Positions 2,713-54,948 of a DNA stretch of 64,000 bases are shown here, piece after piece; position 1 is the first letter of the stretch; each line of letters opens with the position of its first letter. The stretch comes from a phage. The stretch is taken from the sequence record PX667085.1. The stretch is one strand, 5' to 3'. The position numbers and the translations under genes were made by a program. The notes below the pieces were generated by a model, which was given only the letters and a program-made list of their open reading frames with translations, was not told the origin of the DNA and did no database searches.

Positions 2713-4959
2713 TTGATTCGTTTTGTAACTAAATCTAACGGTAAGACAGAGGAGTTTAATCCAGAAAAACTTCGCAAGTGGTCTGAATTTGCAGCAGGTA
2801 AACTAAACTGGTCTGAAATTGAATTAGAAGCTGTGAAGCGGTGTTATGACGGTGTGTCTACACGTGATCTGCATAAAGCAATGATTGCAGCGTGTATTGA
2901 CAAGAAAACACAAGCTTACAGTGATATGGCAGGAAGACTTCTTCTGGGTATGATTTACAAACAGGCTCATGGGGGATACCACAGTATCCCTTCACTGAAT
3001 ACCTTTTATCATGATATGGTAGAACGTGGACATTGGGCTAAAATGGATTATACTGATGAAGAGATCAAAGAAATCGGTAAGATTGTAAAGCATAATAAAA
3101 ATCTAACTTATGGTTATTCTGTTTTACGTCAGATGGTAGATAAATATCTTATTCGAGATGCAGTAAACGATGTTGTGCATGAGTCTCCACAGTTTCTTTT
3201 CATTGGTATCGCAATGAAGGTTATGGAGATCCAACCAAAAGAACGCCGTATAGAAGATATTAAAAAACTTTATACTTATGTTAGCGATCTTAAGATTAAT
3301 CTGCCATCGCCGTATCTGACAACTCTACGAACTCCAATCAAAGGAAGTGCGTCTTGTTGTTTATTCCGTGCAGACGATACGGCAGAGTCTTTAGCCATTG
3401 CTAACTACTTAGCTCATGAGTATACGTTGAATAACGCAGGTATTGGTGTTAATCTTCAAACCCGTGCCACAGGTCAAGGTGTTAAGAATAATCGTATTAT
3501 TCATGGTGGTCTTCTTCCGTATCTGAAATGGATGGAAGATAGTGTTGGAGCTTCGAAGCAAGCAAGCCGTGGAGGTAGTGCTACAGTTACCTTTACCATA
3601 CTTGAACCAGATTTCGACGATCTGATTCGACTGAAGAATCCAACAACACCTATAGATAAACGAGTAGACAAACTGGATTATTCTATTGTTGTTAACCGTT
3701 CATTCTTGCGTCGAGCAGCAAAAAACGAAGATTGGATGTTAGTTAGTTGTGATGATGCTCCTGAACTTTATGAAGCTTTGTATAAAAGTGAAGAAGAGTT
3801 TGATGCAGTTTATGACAAAGTAAGCCGTCGTCGCATTAAGAAAAAATTTGTTAAGGCTCGTGATCTTCTGACAGAGATTATTGTTCAACGTGCAGAAACA
3901 GGACGTATTTACATGTTCTTTGCTGACAACGTTAACAACCATACACCTTTCCTGGATACGGTGTATCAATCAAACCTGTGTCAAGAGATTTTCTTACCGA
4001 CTAAAGCTTTCCACAATATGCCGGATCTCTTTACTGGTGAGAATACTGAAGATCAAGAATTGGCTTTATGTTTCTTATCTTCTATTGTTGCTGGTCGTGT
4101 ATTACCTGAAGAATATGAAGATGTTGCATACTACACTGTATTGACAATTGACAACGTTATTGAAACAATGGATTATCCATTTAAACATAACGAAATAACT
4201 GCTAAAGCACGTAGATCTATTGGTGTAGGCATTACAAACTTAGCGCATTACTTGGCAAGTAATTTTGTAAATTATTCAGATGCTTATGCTAAAAAATTAA
4301 TGCATGAACTTGCAGAACGTCATTACTTTTGGTTGGCAAAAGCCTCTCTGCGTCTGGCTAAGGAAAAAGGTAATGCGGAGTGGATCGATAAGACCAAATG
4401 GCCTCAAGGTTGGCTACCAATTGACACTTATGCTAAAACAGTAGATAGTATCGGTAATTTTGATCTTAAAATGGACTGGGAAGGCTTACGTGCTGAAATC
4501 ATTGAACAAGGTGGTATTCGTAACAGTGTCTTGGCTGCTATTGCACCTAATGAGTCCAGCAGTTTGGTAAGCAATACTACTAACTCTCTGTATCCTGTTC
4601 GTGATACCATTATGTATAAACAAAGTCAGAAAGGCAGTGTATTATTTATTGTTCCAGACTATGAAAAACTGAAAATGTTCTACCAATCTGCCTGGGATAC
4701 TCCGGCTAAAGATCTTGCAGAAATGTATGGTATTTTTACCAAGTTTACGGACCAAGGAATTTCTTGTGATTCTTGGTTAGATTATTCTAAATTGGTAGGG
4801 GGACGTTTATCAGTTAAAGAAGAGATGAAATTTATTTTGAACTTTGCTAGACTGGGTGGTAAGTCATTGTATTACCTTAATAGTAGAACAAAATCAGCAG
4901 ACTCTTTAGCACAAGAAGATAACCTGAAAGAGTCTGGATGTGAGGGTTGCAGCATGTAG
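2713..4959 (+). CDS. nrdA: ribonucleotide reductase class Ia large subunit
   Basis: 748 aa; N-terminal ATP-cone-like VTKSNGKTEEFNPEKL; C-terminal Cys pair CEGC; TTG start after GGGAGGAG. Confidence 0.9.
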   Translation: MIRFVTKSNGKTEEFNPEKLRKWSEFAAGKLNWSEIELEAVKRCYDGVSTRDLHKAMIAACIDKKTQAYSDMAGRLLLGMIYKQAHGGYHSIPSLNTFYHDMVERGHWAKMDYTDEEIKEIGKIVKHNKNLTYGYSVLRQMVDKYLIRDAVNDVVHESPQFLFIGIAMKVMEIQPKERRIEDIKKLYTYVSDLKINLPSPYLTTLRTPIKGSASCCLFRADDTAESLAIANYLAHEYTLNNAGIGVNLQTRATGQGVKNNRIIHGGLLPYLKWMEDSVGASKQASRGGSATVTFTILEPDFDDLIRLKNPTTPIDKRVDKLDYSIVVNRSFLRRAAKNEDWMLVSCDDAPELYEALYKSEEEFDAVYDKVSRRRIKKKFVKARDLLTEIIVQRAETGRIYMFFADNVNNHTPFLDTVYQSNLCQEIFLPTKAFHNMPDLFTGENTEDQELALCFLSSIVAGRVLPEEYEDVAYYTVLTIDNVIETMDYPFKHNEITAKARRSIGVGITNLAHYLASNFVNYSDAYAKKLMHELAERHYFWLAKASLRLAKEKGNAEWIDKTKWPQGWLPIDTYAKTVDSIGNFDLKMDWEGLRAEIIEQGGIRNSVLAAIAPNESSSLVSNTTNSLYPVRDTIMYKQSQKGSVLFIVPDYEKLKMFYQSAWDTPAKDLAEMYGIFTKFTDQGISCDSWLDYSKLVGGRLSVKEEMKFILNFARLGGKSLYYLNSRTKSADSLAQEDNLKESGCEGCSM

Positions 4960-40537: not shown

Positions 40538-40559
40538 GACAATCTCCTCTCATCGTTAG

Positions 40560-42030
40560 CCATCTTTCATGGCAATCATCAATCACCAACATCATACGAT
40601 CAATCTTCGGCAATTACAATCGAATTATCATAGGGGATTCCTATCAATTATCCTATATATACCGATTATTTTTGACACCCCATTCTTGTATAAAAAGTAA
40701 CCCAAAATATCTACGGGGAGAGATTATTTCGACACACCCTGTTTCATGGCAATCACGGCAAGAATATCTAATAGAATCAATATGATATGGCAAAAATCAT
40801 GGCGTATACGTAAGAAGTGCTTAACGCGAATTTTCGGGCCGTCAGGTCCACGCAGCGACAATTCCCAAATATCATGCGAATGAGAATAATTATCATTCGT
40901 ATTCAATGACTTATGCAAGGCTCATGCCAACGTAGCGACAAGGTGGGCCACTCGATTATAAATCACACAAACACTTATTTATCAATGGCTTGGCAACTTC
41001 ATCATATGACGGAACAATGTCAACTAATCCCGCTCATGACAAGCAGACTATTATTTATATGAGAATGATTATTATTTAAACGTTTATTAACATAAAAACT
41101 AAAATAAATCAAGATTATTCTGATTTTATTTACGTTTAAGAGAAGATGCTCAACATCCTACCGGATCGCCGTTGGCAATCCTCGGATATTTACGCCCCCA
41201 TGATTAAGGTTTATCTCTTTCTTAGTGCTCAACATTCCCGCCCGTGGCGGTAACATTTCGCCCCCAAAATTATTGACTTTTATTCTATTATGTGCATAGT
41301 GTGCAATGTATCGGAATGATGATAATCATCCTCCCATTGCCCCCAATAATTATTGCCATGCTAATGATTTCATATTGTAACCATTACAATGATTATTGTT
41401 ATTGCGCTAATGTTATGATCTTGGTAATTACATATAATGCTAATAATAAGCCAGCGCAATAAGTGTAAGCGTCATTACGCTTGCAATTATTGCAAGCTAC
41501 GCAGTAACAAGAAATAACCATCACCGATGGTTATGATTGTTGGGGTGTAGTTGGCTTATTATTAGCTCGCTATGTGTCCGGCATAGCGTGCTAATGATGA
41601 TCCTGGGAATGATTCGTTTTGTAATGATTTCATTCAGTCACTATTATGGCAATAGTTATTATTTTAATGGTTTCGTTTGTTATTGTTCGTTAGTTGGTTG
41701 TTTTGTCGTGTTATCGTTATCTTGCTTAGTATTCATCATGGTTTGATTGTTTGTCGTTATCAATCATCTTGCTATTATTCCTTTGATTATGATTAGTTTG
41801 CTTATTGTTTTAGGTTGTTGGTTAGTTAGTTGTTGCGAACTGTTATCAACATTATAGTTATGCGCTTATATTGCATATATAATCATGTATAGATGATAAT
41901 GGTTATCATTGCACTAGAAAGGAGGTAAAAGGGTGTTTTTGATGGTTTGTTGTTGGTTGTTGATCGATTTTAACCGCTATAAATGGCTCTCTAACAGCCT
42001 GTTACCCTGGGAGGTATGGTTATTCGTTTA
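40560..42030. repeat. 1.4-kb non-coding palindrome- and repeat-rich region (candidate origin/regulatory hub)
   Basis: No convincing ORF; GAGAATrATTATyATT at 40882 and 41061, ATGATAATCAT-type palindromes, T/G-rich short repeats. Confidence 0.5.
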
Positions 42031-42111
42031 ATGGTTGATTAGCTCGATACCGCGATTTATTCAATTTTGTTCTGTGTCGGTTTTTCATAGGGGAAAGCTA
42101 TCAACATTGTT

Positions 42112-42154
42112 CGGGCAAAAAGAAAGGGCGCTTGGTGCGCCCCTTGTTTTGTTG
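42112..42154. terminator. bidirectional intrinsic terminator
   Basis: GGGCGCTTGGTGCGCCCC hairpin flanked by A- and T-tracts. Confidence 0.65.
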
Positions 42155-42578: not shown

Positions 42579-42688
42579 GGTGTTGTCCTTTGTTTCGTTT
42601 CGTTGTTTGCTGCCAGTGAGTTAAATATAATATAACGCCGATCCCCTGTCAATAGGGGATAGCGCATTATTTACATTTCTTTACGTTA

Positions 42689-52795: not shown

Positions 52796-52856
52796 GCGGC
52801 TGGACCATTCCGCCGCCCTATGTGGTACATCTTATCAGGTTGTTGTTTGTTGTCAA
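52796..52856 (-). promoter_or_regulatory. PeSL-like cassette (hairpin GCGGCTGGA-CCA-TTCCGCCGC, -35 TTGACA)
   Basis: Hairpin 52796-52816, -35 at 52851-52856. Confidence 0.55.
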
Positions 52857-52862
52857 TACTTT

Positions 52863-53060
52863 TTATTCTATTCCTGCAATTTGATTAACGCGCTTGCATT
52901 TTGTAGCGTGCTGGTCTTCTGTAATGACTCCCATTTCTAACAGGGAATCAATGAAAGATAAAACCGTTTCATGATCATCCTGGGGATGACTGAACTCAGT
53001 AAAACCGTTTACTATTACGTTGATTTGTCCAGCTTTCGCCACAATATGCAATGTTGCCAT
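52863..53060 (-). CDS. hypothetical protein
   Basis: 65-aa ORF, last gene of the array. Confidence 0.5.
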   Translation of the reverse strand: MATLHIVAKAGQINVIVNGFTEFSHPQDDHETVLSFIDSLLEMGVITEDQHATKCKRVNQIAGIE

Positions 53061-53195
53061 GATCTTAACTCCAGGTGATAAATGATGTTTTTTGTTGGTG
53101 GACGGTGGATTATGGAGATCCTCACCTTTGCCCGTCCTGCATTGCGCCCTCCTGTTGTTTATTGTCGTTGTGCCGCGCCCCCCTCGACAAGATGA

Positions 53196-53224
53196 ATACT
53201 ACGCTACCAGGTGAGGAACGTCAA
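53196..53224 (-). promoter_or_regulatory. sigma70-type promoter TTGACG-17-TAGTAT (minus strand)
   Basis: Divergent from the plus-strand promoter at 53258. Confidence 0.45.
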
Positions 53225-53257
53225 CCACTTTTTCAATCTTTTTTATTTTCTTTTTGC

Positions 53258-53286
53258 TTGCTATATATAAAGGAAAGGGCTATCAT
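53258..53286 (+). promoter_or_regulatory. sigma70-type promoter TTGCTA-17-TATCAT
   Basis: Followed by GCGCC-AACCAG-GGCGC leader hairpin and RBS. Confidence 0.5.
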
Positions 53287-53333
53287 CTTTCTACCGCGCC
53301 AACCAGGGCGCACAACAAAGAAAGGGCGACACC

Positions 53334-53501
53334 ATGACAAATACTACATTACACCTTATGCACTCATTGGGCTGGCAAGGCGGCACGGTGCACCAGGTAG
53401 CAAGCGCAACGGGCTTAAAGGTTGAAACAGTTCTCAACCTGGGCGATCATAAGGTGGAAGAGATAGATCATTTTGATACGTTCGCAAATGGTTATCTATA
53501 G
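53334..53501 (+). CDS. small helix-turn-helix DNA-binding protein (55 aa, Cro/XRE-like)
   Basis: TVHQVASATGLKVETVLNL HTH-like segment; own promoter; below ORF-table cutoff. Confidence 0.5.
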   Translation: MTNTTLHLMHSLGWQGGTVHQVASATGLKVETVLNLGDHKVEEIDHFDTFANGYL

Positions 53502-53602
53502 GCTTGCAGTGGCGGCGGGGAAAGCAAGATACCACCAGGGGCGCGGGGCGATATGTATTTTTGGTTAGGTGTCCTATCCTGGCAAGAAAACAAAAAATAA
53601 TC

Positions 53603-53631
53603 TTGACAAGCCCAGGGATCGGGCTTATACT
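53603..53631 (+). promoter_or_regulatory. near-consensus sigma70 promoter TTGACA-17-TATACT with no downstream ORF
   Basis: Hexamers read directly; next 750 bp have no convincing plus-strand ORF. Confidence 0.55.
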
Positions 53632-53850
53632 GTTTTACATACAGAAGAGGAAGCGCCACCCCACGGCGTAAAGGCGGGGCTAACATACCAGGGGCACTGG
53701 TTGGAAGGTTGATCGCCGGTAGGCTGGGCGCTATATATTTGTAAAGAAATGTAAAGATAAAATAATCGCTTGCTTTCCTGGCTGGATCTGTTATTCTTAT
53801 TACATGGCGAGGGGACACGGGAGCGCGAGACAAACACCACCCCTGCGCGT

Positions 53851-53964
53851 CATTCTCTAAATGAGAATGATTATCATTTACCTTATTGAATAAGAATCAA
53901 TCTCATTTATAAACTTAAATGCGAATCATTCTCATTTGCATTTCCACATGAGAACTCTTCTCAT
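53851..53964. promoter_or_regulatory. cluster of operator-like palindromes (Fur-box-like)
   Basis: CATTCTC-TAAAT-GAGAATG, GAGAATGATTATCATT, AATGCGAATCATTCTCATTTGCATT, ATGAGAA-CTC-TTCTCAT. Confidence 0.45.
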
Positions 53965-53980
53965 CCCCACCTGCATAAAT

Positions 53981-54188
53981 TTTTGTAAACTTTAAATTTT
54001 GCTTTTGTACTTTCATTTTTGTAAAAGCAAAAAAACTTTAAATACTGTGGGCGCGCAAAATTTTTAAAATTTTCCTTGACTTTTGAGTTTTGTTTTGTAT
54101 CTAACATTTTAAGATAATTTTCCTAAACTTTAAATTTTGGTTTTCAACTTTCACTTTTGTAAATTCTTAAAAAGTTTAAATAATTTGA
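53981..54188. repeat. two ~65-bp AT-rich direct repeats
   Basis: AAACTTTAAATTTTGsTTTT..ACTTTCAyTTTTGTAAA occurs at about 53981 and 54122. Confidence 0.5.
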
Positions 54189-54405
54189 GGGATTTTTGAG
54201 ATAATAGGTAGTGGAAATTTGAGATAACCTTTAATCTTATTGGTAGACCTTCAGGAACTCACCTAAATCGAATCCTAGTGATGCAAACTGAAAAAGATAA
54301 GTGTTTGTATAAGACAAAATAACAGGCTCTCTACGGTGCTGTAGGAGCCTTATTTCTGTGCTACAAAGTGACACCTTTGTTCTAAAAATGAAAAAAGTTA
54401 AAATA

Positions 54406-54948
54406 TCACAAATATCGTCTTTGCGGTATTTTGTCTGGGAAAAGTATTTCGATCAGTTTGTTATGATATTTGCCTAAAAGATTCTGCCCTTTCCAGGTGG
54501 CAGGGTTTAGCACCCCTGGTTCATACATCCCCATTCCAATTCCGTAAACCTTATCGTAGGGGCTTGCTTCAACAAACGTTTTGTATTGGTAAAGGTGTAA
54601 GTCTGCATACAAATCTGGATTCTGTACATATTTCAAGCATAAACCTCGCATAACAATACGCTCACGGTTCTCTTCCCATACGTTGTTATCAAAATCCGAC
54701 ACTGCCCTACCCATACGTTTGTAATAAGCTTGGATCTTCTCATCTTTCCGTATCAAACTATGAGTCAGAATAGCCTGTGCAGTGTTGTGGTCATTAAAAA
54801 GCAAAGCTTTACGCCACATCATGTATTGTTCGACACAATTAAATGTTTGATTGTAACCTGGTTCGGTTTCTGTAAAGGGTGCAATATACCAATTACTAAA
54901 CACATCTTTATGTGAAAAGAAGAATACATAATCATCAGTTATTCGCAT
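54406..54948 (-). CDS. NADAR-family (YbiA-like, DUF1768) protein
   Basis: VFFFSHKDVFSNWY, EQYMMWRKALLF and YGIGMG motifs. Confidence 0.7.
   Translation of the reverse strand: MRITDDYVFFFSHKDVFSNWYIAPFTETEPGYNQTFNCVEQYMMWRKALLFNDHNTAQAILTHSLIRKDEKIQAYYKRMGRAVSDFDNNVWEENRERIVMRGLCLKYVQNPDLYADLHLYQYKTFVEASPYDKVYGIGMGMYEPGVLNPATWKGQNLLGKYHNKLIEILFPDKIPQRRYL

Follow-up and report, generated by a model that had tools for sequence, protein, structure and literature searches.

An apparently truncated 88-codon gene behind back-to-back promoters in a phAPEC8/phi92-like phage: a probable early-gene cassette rather than a genetic switch

The locus and its interrupted gene

The window analysed here is a stretch of 64,000 nucleotides (nt) of phage DNA (sequence record PX667085.1), and the feature under study is a small rightward gene at 53334-53600, whose promoter stands back to back with the first promoter of a leftward small-gene array. 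In the initial annotation, a 55-codon open reading frame (ORF) seen at this place was taken for a Cro/XRE-like helix-turn-helix (HTH) gene forming part of a small genetic switch. Our comparisons lead to another reading, which we consider probable: a conserved early-gene cassette that encodes an uncharacterised 88-codon protein, truncated in this genome, and not a switch. The region surrounding the gene (52800-54400) shares 98.8% identity with Escherichia phage ECO340P1 (Phapecoctavirus) and 93-98% with phAPEC8, Mt1B1_P17, ZCKP1, phi92 and ~140 other Stephanstirmvirinae records (Phapecoctavirus, Justusliebigvirus). The source is a phAPEC8/phi92-like Phapecoctavirus; the identity to ECO340P1 contradicts the T4-type genome initially supposed. 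These Stephanstirmvirinae relatives are virulent myoviruses with genomes of ~150 kb.

The 55-codon ORF does exist where it was described, but its length arises from a TGG to TAG change inside an 88-codon gene that ends at 53600 (Table 1). Across 53179-53640, the sole difference between the window and ECO340P1 is an A instead of a G at 53500, and codon 56 is Trp (TGG) in all 12 relatives read, each encoding a protein of ~87-100 amino acids (aa). The 55-aa product matches the PHROG 19316 profile with an expectation value (E) of 6.7e-33 over positions 1-55 of 88, and its intact orthologue, represented by the closest database cluster (P0001, 88 aa, 99% identical, 136 member sequences), matches over positions 1-88 (E 7.4e-59). 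Past the TAG, the frame reads ...GGGESKIPPGARGDMYFWLGVLSWQENKK* up to the stop ending at 53600; in a longer reading, this in-frame continuation is ...ACSGGGESKIPPGARGDMYFWLGVLSWQENKK*. A regular PHROG 19316 member would have an intact frame of 86-92 codons with a C-terminal F-W-x-G-V motif; in the window, the frame is closed by the TAG at codon 56 and this motif is still encoded in frame downstream of it, outside the ORF. Furthermore, phi92, Mt1B1_P17, PaulScherrer and anhysbys are among the relatives in which the position and orientation of the gene are unchanged, with GAGGA, AGAGGA, AGGAG or AAGGA at the Shine-Dalgarno position of the relatives, where the phi92 record annotates a ribosome-binding site. 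Judged by these alignments, the 55-codon ORF is best described as a truncated allele of a conserved 88-codon gene, not as a natural unit.

Could the frame be open merely by chance, in a regulatory region whose conservation reflects DNA or RNA elements? The surrounding 1.35 kb (53061-54405) is without long ORFs, otherwise non-coding and highly conserved, as such an explanation would have it, and annotators disagree on the ORF. No coding sequence is annotated at the locus in ECO340P1 and BI-EHEC; ZCKP1 carries an out-of-frame call spanning the promoters (AWY08214; 53075-53425, plus strand, 116 aa; 1880-2113 in L003, L numbers denoting the fetched loci); phAPEC8_00257 is an antisense call (53492-53833, minus strand, 113 aa; L001 3606-3947) opposite the real gene and the next rightward promoter, P2; and phi92, Mt1B1_P17, PaulScherrer and anhysbys annotate a plus-strand gene of 88-89 codons. 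Against a chance frame, the variable sites of ten lineages fall on the first, second and third codon positions in numbers of 19/10/37 (codons 1-55) and 10/7/21 (codons 57-88), third positions thus dominating in both halves of the gene, and the ratio of nonsynonymous to synonymous divergence (dN/dS) is 0.05-0.3; past the TAG, dN is 0 and dS 0.10-0.17 in comparison with phi92 and PaulScherrer. Homologues with 25-40% identity occur in hundreds of contigs, the structural model is confident and the ribosome-binding site is conserved. As for the competing ORFs, 53075-53425 was rejected as it has no family matches and overlaps the promoters, and 53492-53833 as it likewise has no family matches and 1-nt indels among close relatives disrupt its frame. 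We conclude from these substitution patterns that the 88-codon gene is real and under purifying selection in both halves; a chance frame is hardly credible and, as far as sequence analysis goes, refuted.

A separate question concerns the amber codon itself. Among 108 phage records, none has a 100% match to the 60-nt stretch centred on codon 56, and in IMG/VR contigs the 26-mer carrying TAG occurs in none and its TGG version in two. Because it is absent from all relatives and records compared, the amber codon is either specific to this genome or a sequencing error. A truncated product would probably be inactive, as it is without helix 5 and the nearly invariant F76, W77 and G79, and if the base call is correct, the truncation therefore points to a dispensable accessory gene. 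Alternatively, TAG 53499-53501 might not be a true truncation, and an 88-aa protein would be made after all, owing to a sequencing or assembly error, a suppressor host (e.g. supE) or readthrough. The downstream frame is indeed intact and identical to that of ECO340P1, and the change, one transition that no other record shows, is accompanied by no second disabling change. However, the same picture would result if a dispensable gene had recently undergone a real mutation, and the base following the stop is a G, which disfavours appreciable natural readthrough, UAG-G being an efficient terminator in Escherichia coli. We regard such a non-truncation as somewhat unlikely; an error or suppression would leave the rest of our reading unchanged.

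To the left, 53061-54405 is flanked by the leftward small-gene array and to the right by a leftward NADAR-domain gene (54406-54948, minus strand, Pfam E 7.8e-36), which is variously labelled 'GTP cyclohydrolase II', 'YbiA-like N-glycosidase' or hypothetical across relatives. Rfam searches of the whole window at the gathering threshold and of 53150-54450 at E <= 5 yielded noise only (snoRNA and miRNA models), and ARAGORN found no tRNA or tmRNA. The match list for 52800-54400 also includes records named Campylobacter phage (five), Acinetobacter phage vB_AbaM_ABPW7 and a Pseudomonas phage; the Campylobacter phage B15 and Acinetobacter records among the matches listed are ~97-98% identical to the region, and their host labels look doubtful.

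Table 1. Features at the locus and related sites in the window (nt, nucleotides; dG, free energy)
Feature	Position	Strand	Details
ORF as read in the window	53334-53501	+	55 codons + TAG; MTNTT...ANGYL*
Full-length gene frame	53334-53600	+	88 codons + TAA; phi92 gp224 / PHROG 19316 family; interrupted at codon 56
In-frame amber TAG	53499-53501	+	replaces Trp56 (TGG); A at 53500 seen only in this window
Shine-Dalgarno-like AAGGG	53322-53326	+	7 nt ahead of ATG
Leftward sigma70-type promoter	53224..53196	-	-35 TTGACG 53224..53219, 17-nt spacer, -10 TAGTAT 53201..53196; 9/12
A/T-rich tract between -35 hexamers	53225-53257		33 bp; tract kept in Tr1, 18-1-2, A7_1
P1, rightward sigma70-type promoter	53258-53286	+	TTGCTA-17-TATCAT; 9/12; predicted start near 53293
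P1 leader stem-loop	53296-53311	+	GCGCC-AACCAG-GGCGC; dG -11.9 kcal/mol, z -2.0
Leftward 65-aa gene	52863..53060	-	PHROG 23268, function not assigned; driven by promoter 53196..53224
Other leftward early promoters	52856, 52497, 51611, 51420	-	common build
8-bp inverted pair	GGTGAGGA 53210-53217; TCCTCACC 53119-53126		second arm is the reverse complement
P2, near-consensus promoter	53603-53631	+	TTGACA-17-TATACT; 11/12, best in 5 kb scanned; 2 nt past gene stop
GC-rich hairpin in P2 spacer	53608-53626	+	predicted 3' end of gene mRNA; flagged by scan as terminator-like
Conserved non-coding P2 transcript	53637-53769	+	~130 nt
Candidate H-type pseudoknot	S1 53654-53657/53665-53668; S2 53659-53662/53676-53679	+	covariation in S2
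GTAAA-N5-GTAAA direct repeat	53741-53755	+	last base 14 nt upstream of P3 -35
Second identical copy of GTAAAGAAATGTAAA	42670-42684	-	17 nt upstream of -35 of leftward promoter 42652..42624
P3, weaker promoter	53770-53797	+	TTGCTT-16-TATTCT; below scan threshold; transcript start near 53803
Fur-box-like palindrome cluster	53851-53965		best 7-1-7 site TGAGAATGATTATCA 53862-53876
Further Fur-box-like sites	40881-40895, 41060-41074, 41894-41908		7-1-7 palindromes; region flanking the small-gene array
A/T-rich direct repeats around AAACTTTAAAT	53978-54187		two 72-nt units + partial third (families D1-D3)
Hairpin at right edge of non-coding region	54324-54350		terminator of leftward NADAR-gene unit; phAPEC8 annotates minus-strand terminator

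The protein family and its supposed likeness to Cro

Beyond the close relatives, an exhaustive profile search returned 211 representatives at E <= 1e-3, and a word-indexed search with a 54-sequence profile at least 628 clusters (90% identity), the homologues being almost all 80-120 aa long and all unnamed or 'hypothetical'. At the protein level they reach 25-40% identity in unrelated phage contigs. The distant members lie co-directionally inside small-gene arrays, in other large phages and on phage contigs that come from unrelated samples and measure 24-220 kb, and their loci are without the back-to-back promoter arrangement. Neither for the protein nor for 54 family members was a named family found in Pfam, NCBIfam or PHROGs, PHROGs 19316 and 33408 being of unknown function, and the literature searched contained nothing on the gp224-like protein family. 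Three leucine-rich-repeat proteins among the representatives (P0051, P0150, P0152) were rejected as false positives caused by the L..L..L.L pattern of residues 28-36, and they illustrate the low specificity of an 'HTH-like segment'.

AlphaFold2, supplied with the family alignment, produced a model with a predicted local distance difference test score (pLDDT) of 93.4 and a predicted template-modelling score (pTM) of 0.86, in which five helices are predicted (residues 4-11, 19-26, 30-38, 44-58 and 74-86). G16, G17, T18 and G53 are invariant in the family, G13, H20, Q21, G27, W77 and G79 are conserved to at least 90%, and W14 and Q15 are kept in 47 and 48 of the 54 members, respectively; together, the conserved residues outline a G-W-Q-G-G-T-x-H-Q loop ahead of helix 2. 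Foldseek retrieved nothing with E < 1 from the PDB and, from BFVD, solely members of the same family, any XRE or CI entries having E > 0.8. The modelled five-helix fold is confidently predicted and unlike any solved structure.

The switch proposed initially would consist of a Cro/XRE repressor that autoregulates its own and the divergent promoter and binds palindromes 350 bp downstream as well as at 40.9-41.1 kb. A pair of back-to-back promoters flanked by a small gene would suit this scheme, and residues 19-38 (helix 2-turn-helix 3) fit the classical HTH spacing (A5, G9, hydrophobic 10 and 15). In addition, when the family profile was compared with PDB sequences, the best XRE protein was 3b7h, to whose HTH it aligned at a non-significant E of 1.3, nothing in that search being significant, and HTH_26 was matched by one of 54 members (E 0.051, far short of the cut-off). 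Nevertheless, the 'clear HTH-like segment' found no support in any profile or fold comparison made. The 55-aa product hit no HTH family in Pfam at E <= 1, and the 54 members, scanned singly, gave only scattered sub-threshold HTH matches in Pfam (LacI, HTH_7, HTH_26, IclR and MerR, E 0.02-0.09) and none in NCBIfam. A profile-profile comparison of the HHpred type fared no better: hhalign assigned a probability of 1.4% to the match with an alignment of the N-domains of 434 Cro, 434 cI, P22 C2, SinR and lambda cI (reference sequences entered by hand), and the segment aligned is the helix 4-5 part of XRE proteins, not the HTH. In Foldseek, the Xfaso-1 Cro protein reached a template-modelling (TM) score of 0.34 with an E of 6.2.

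The chemistry of the family likewise speaks against a repressor of this kind. The conserved polar or basic recognition helix and basic surface of XRE proteins are missing: the family is neutral to acidic (median isoelectric point, pI, 6.7 and median net charge 0; pI 5.9 for the window protein), residues 29-36, the supposed recognition helix, have the consensus (T/S)V.(E/D/Q)IL(D/Y/N)L, in which neither a basic nor a polar residue is conserved, and the invariant positions lie in the preceding loop. Moreover, the promoters are without repeats, none of the tests run marks the partner gene as a regulator, the palindromes match the Fur consensus and the fhuE upstream region and stay conserved while the protein diverges to ~45% identity, and homologues occur without such palindromes. 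No test supports a Cro/XRE-like protein, the protein is probably not a DNA-binding repressor, and we consider the autoregulatory switch very improbable.

Promoters and the rightward non-coding module

The pair of promoters facing away from each other, as reported in the initial annotation, is present. A scan of 5 kb gave 20 promoter sites versus 13.8 +/- 4.0 in shuffles, which is not above chance, and both sites of the pair lie at its threshold of 9/12. The stronger argument comes from conservation: the leftward -35 (CGTCAA/TGTCAA on the plus strand) with a correctly spaced -10 is kept in 18-1-2 (Vequintavirinae), Tr1, FBKp34 and A7_1, and a TTGC -35 with a TAnnnT -10 at 16-17 nt is kept at P1 in 18-1-2, Tr1, phi1_175008, FBKp34 and A7_1, in relatives whose spacers and flanks of both promoters are unalignable. 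Both sites show the -35 and -10 elements of sigma70 promoters at 16-18 nt spacing, conserved across relatives; although the scan alone is non-significant, the conservation of hexamers and spacing argues for both predicted promoters. The A/T-rich tract between their -35 hexamers may act as an UP-element-like region common to the two.

The leader hairpin of P1, which the initial annotation also described correctly, is identical in A7_1 and replaced by different hairpins in FBKp34 and phi1_175008, and it leaves the ribosome-binding site free. In E. coli, 5' stem-loops protect mRNAs from 5'-end-dependent decay, and by analogy the P1 hairpin probably stabilises the transcript and does not act as an attenuator. 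The leftward early promoters have a common build, in which sigma70 hexamers are followed by an ACAT/ACGT start and a GC-rich stem-loop at the 5' end (AGGGCGGCAATGGTGCCGCTC), of which P1 with its leader hairpin is a further example. The 'PHIRE promoters' annotated in phAPEC8 (L001 739-758, 1755-1774, 2644-2663 and 3283-3302) are the transcribed hairpins, not promoters. As to the leader of the 65-aa gene (53080-53180), phAPEC8 has a short canonical 5' hairpin directly ahead of the gene, and the window, ECO340P1, ZCKP1, anhysbys and phi92 share a different leader, ~100 nt longer.

In a repeat search of 52800-54450, no inverted or direct repeats had both of their copies within 53190-53300. The inverted pair described earlier does occur, but ~1-2 such 8-bp pairs are expected per 450 nt by our estimate and it is not co-conserved, PaulScherrer, A7_1 and phAPEC8 each being without one arm, and we regard it as chance. 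The 65-aa partner gene shows no HTH or repressor match in Pfam or PHROGs. No repeats lie over or between the promoters, the partner gene is without a regulator signature and distant homologues are co-directional in their arrays, and the notion of a small genetic switch accordingly lost its footing. What did hold is a plus-strand small gene behind a promoter back to back with the first one of the small-gene array, a gene that annotation often misses or mis-calls. Both promoters would be ordinary constitutive early promoters.

The gene heads a rightward module with the order gp224-like gene, P2 with its hairpin, ~130-nt RNA, GTAAA repeat, P3, Fur boxes and A/T-rich, iteron-like repeats that differ by lineage; the literature searched contained no description of it, nor transcription studies of these phages. 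The TTGAC(A/G) and the -10 of P2 are kept in all 14 lineages examined. The hairpin in its spacer is built from seven different, covarying stems in the 14 lineages, each folding at -8.8 to -16 kcal/mol, and in four lineages G.U pairs, which occur on the plus strand only, give the plus-strand RNA a markedly higher stability. Because these G.U pairs favour plus-strand RNA, the hairpin is best taken to close the 3' end of the gene's mRNA from a place inside the next promoter, where it would serve as a stabiliser or weak terminator. In locus L026 of a distant relative (2752-3200; IMGVR_UViG_3300048919_000048), two successive promoters, TTGACA...CAATAA and TTGACG...TATCAT, each have a GC-rich hairpin within the spacer, and both precede protein-coding genes. 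In these phages, a hairpin within the promoter spacer may be a general way of joining a terminator to a promoter.

The P2 transcript is non-coding because its indels are not multiples of three, and it is better conserved than the protein gene when the window is compared with FBKp34, phi1_175008 and L029/L030. Within it, stem S2 of the candidate pseudoknot varies as CCCC/GGGG, CCAG/CTGG and CCAA/TTGG. The RNAalifold consensus was weak, at -9.2 kcal/mol with a covariation term of -0.7; owing to differing loop lengths, MAFFT puts the covarying helices out of register, and they were tabulated by script. These covarying helices are suggestive only, and the P2 transcript had no Rfam match.

Between P2 and P3 lies the GTAAA-N5-GTAAA repeat, which 20 fetched loci carry at the corresponding position; the window holds two matches versus 0.40 expected, and 6 of 100 shuffles reach two. 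The pattern matches the CpxR-box consensus; further support for a CpxR site was sought and not obtained: in the comparison with host sequences, the region showed no similarity to a CpxR-regulated promoter, just a chance 21-mer in a helicase gene. The repeat might just as well be bound by a phage protein. The P3 -10 (TAtTaT) and the transcribed ACATGGCGAGGGG...CCTGCGCG are kept in FBKp34, phi1_175008 and L029/L030, and partly in A7_1 and Tr1. Where the window has its A/T-rich repeats, other repeats stand at the same place in relatives, CGATCGAGAAC in 18-1-2, L024, L029 and L030, and CTCAAGTTCTC in A7_1; repeat arrays were also seen at ~3180-3360 in L004, ~3190-3390 in L029 and ~1790-1960 in L011. 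Such repeats resemble a replication origin or another protein-binding array, and the region looks like a control region, hypothetically an origin of replication. Cumulative GC skew follows gene orientation, with no origin-like turn at 53-54 kb. The hairpin at the right edge possibly also ends the rightward unit.

The palindromes form part of this module. The E. coli Fur box has the consensus GATAATGATAATCATTATC, or TGATAATnATTATCA in its 7-1-7 form, from which TGAGAATGATTATCA differs at one position. Six matches with <= 2 mismatches occur in the window versus 0.84 expected, a number that 0 of 100 shuffles reach, and four of them (40881, 41060, 41894 and 53862) fall into two large non-coding regions. 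In 17 of 18 lineages, 1-4 sites lie 250-380 nt downstream of P2, and only two occur elsewhere in ~75 kb of fetched loci; this positional conservation spans coliphages and phages of Klebsiella, Citrobacter and Serratia, from two subfamilies. Against 5,426 E. coli genomes, 53845-53970 gave weak matches (E 1-4), many of the listed ones at one intergenic spot, which is ~90-120 nt upstream of fhuE in the genome inspected; 53911-53946 is 83% identical to this upstream region, with AATGCG.ATC.TTCTCATTTGCATTT in common. The gene fhuE encodes a Fur-controlled receptor and has a predicted Fur site, and host Fur clusters typically span 19-142 bp (PMC2189734), a range that includes the ~115 bp of the phage cluster.

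The 'operator-like palindromes' of the initial annotation are there, but they match the host Fur consensus and the fhuE region and are probably not operators for the small protein; they show the clustered 19-bp/7-1-7 pattern of Fur boxes and are kept as a cluster downstream of P2 and P3, not at the divergent promoter pair. The simplest reading is that they are predicted host Fur sites belonging to a separate non-coding module. A promoter over them (TTGAAT-18-TAAACT, 53887-53916, 8/12) was read by eye and set aside as below the scan threshold; the -35 and -10 of fhuE align to no promoter-like hexamers in the phage, and no convincing promoter was found over the Fur boxes. The literature searched contained nothing on Fur boxes in these phages. 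Elsewhere in the window, 40540-42150 is a second large region (~1.6 kb) without a convincing ORF, A/T- and T/G-rich and with many short repeats; it holds three Fur-box-like sites and ends at a bidirectional terminator-like hairpin (42123-42145).

Does the protein, then, serve this module, as a chaperone or binding protein of the P2/P3 RNA or as an accessory factor at the repeats? Gene and module are adjacent and in the same order in every Stephanstirmvirinae/Vequintavirinae-type lineage examined (the window, phi92, A7_1, 18-1-2, FBKp34, phi1_175008, Tr1, L023, L024, L029 and L030), and the 3' hairpin of the gene is built into the P2 spacer. On the other hand, distant members lie in arrays without a trace of the module (L013-L018, L025 and L028), the P2-like promoter of L026 drives protein-coding genes, the repeats vary by lineage (AAACTTTAAAT, CGATCGAGAAC or CTCAAGTTCTC) while the most conserved part of the protein is unchanged, and the window phage itself has a truncated gene beside an intact module. 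A factor dedicated to the module appears quite improbable to us.

A proposed mechanism and comparison with known systems

In the early-gene cassette that we favour, the feature would form the head of a conserved rightward early unit whose promoter faces away from the one that opens the leftward array. Host RNA polymerase would start at P1 and produce a transcript with a GC-rich 5' stem-loop, the Shine-Dalgarno sequence, the 88-codon gene and, at last, the GC-rich hairpin inside the P2 spacer; in this genome, the single G to A change would turn Trp56 into an amber codon and yield the 55-aa product without helix 5. The intact protein would work on a host protein or a small ligand via its G13-W-Q-G-G-T18/H20-Q21 loop, together with G53 and W77/G79, an action suggested by analogy that we hold to be the likeliest one, if at somewhat less than even odds.

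Several points weigh against this account. The TAG at 53500 could be a sequencing error and not a real allele. The gene is tightly syntenic with the module of P2, P3 and Fur boxes across two subfamilies, and a functional link between them is possible. The HTH-like spacing of residues 19-38 leaves room for a divergent DNA- or RNA-binding role of the protein. The step involving a host target rests solely on analogy and on the location of the invariant residues. Finally, the literature searched contained no expression data for this phage group, and promoter activity, transcript ends and translation are inferred from conservation only.

A more speculative extension, which we think unlikely, is that the phage senses the iron status of its host via Fur, and perhaps envelope stress via CpxR, and thereby gates non-coding transcription into the repeat region (maybe an origin), or that its Fur boxes titrate Fur. 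If titration took place, Fur boxes on replicating phage DNA would derepress host iron uptake. If the Fur boxes are real, part of the early programme of virulent phages of the therapeutic type would be tied to the iron status of the host, and next to such iron gating, the widespread GWQGGT-HQ protein would represent a new fold with a host target.

The switch would have implied lysogeny-style regulation in a virulent phage; it does not hold, and the main value of our analysis is corrective. The gene had already been annotated as hypothetical in relatives, the promoters are ordinary, and an early-gene cassette was mistaken for a switch. The protein family, in turn, is large and uncharacterised, with no Pfam family, a confident model without a structural neighbour and a nearly invariant loop.

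Known systems help to place these elements. With the lambda-type Cro/CI and XRE repressors, the locus shares a small protein, predicted to be all-helical, beside back-to-back promoters, and an HTH-like spacing in residues 19-38. It differs from them in showing no sequence, profile or fold similarity, no operators and no repressor partner, in its neutral to acidic family, and in that the phage is virulent. The palindromes resemble the Fur boxes of E. coli, fhuE included, in their 7-1-7 matches with 1-2 mismatches, in a cluster of ~115 bp and in their 83% identity to the fhuE upstream region. In contrast to those of the host, the predicted phage sites stand in a virulent genome, 55-160 nt downstream of a promoter and not over one, and are followed by no gene. 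Host-regulator boxes in lytic phages have a precedent in the PhoB 'pho boxes' upstream of cyanophage pstS and phoA. A virulent phage carrying sites for a global regulator of its host offers a possible parallel for the Fur boxes and the GTAAA repeat, a conceptual one only, as regulator and host are others and the regulated product would here be non-coding.

For the protein, the small early 'host-takeover' proteins T4 AsiA and T7 Gp2, which bind host proteins, provide a functional analogy only: they would be alike in their size of ~60-90 aa, in early sigma70-dependent expression, in being encoded within arrays of small accessory genes and in seeming dispensable. AsiA, too, is all-helical, with an HTH-like motif that does not bind DNA. 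Closest of all is gp224 of phi92 (CBY99653.1) with its orthologues in Phapecoctavirus and Justusliebigvirus, which represents this very gene at the corresponding place, down to its promoter and ribosome-binding site, and is 98-100% identical outside codon 56. From this family (PHROG 19316, 33408) the window departs by a TAG instead of a TGG at codon 56, which leaves 55 of 88 codons open, like a sentence broken off in the middle; as a natural knockout allele, it would be a handy start for asking what the gene does.

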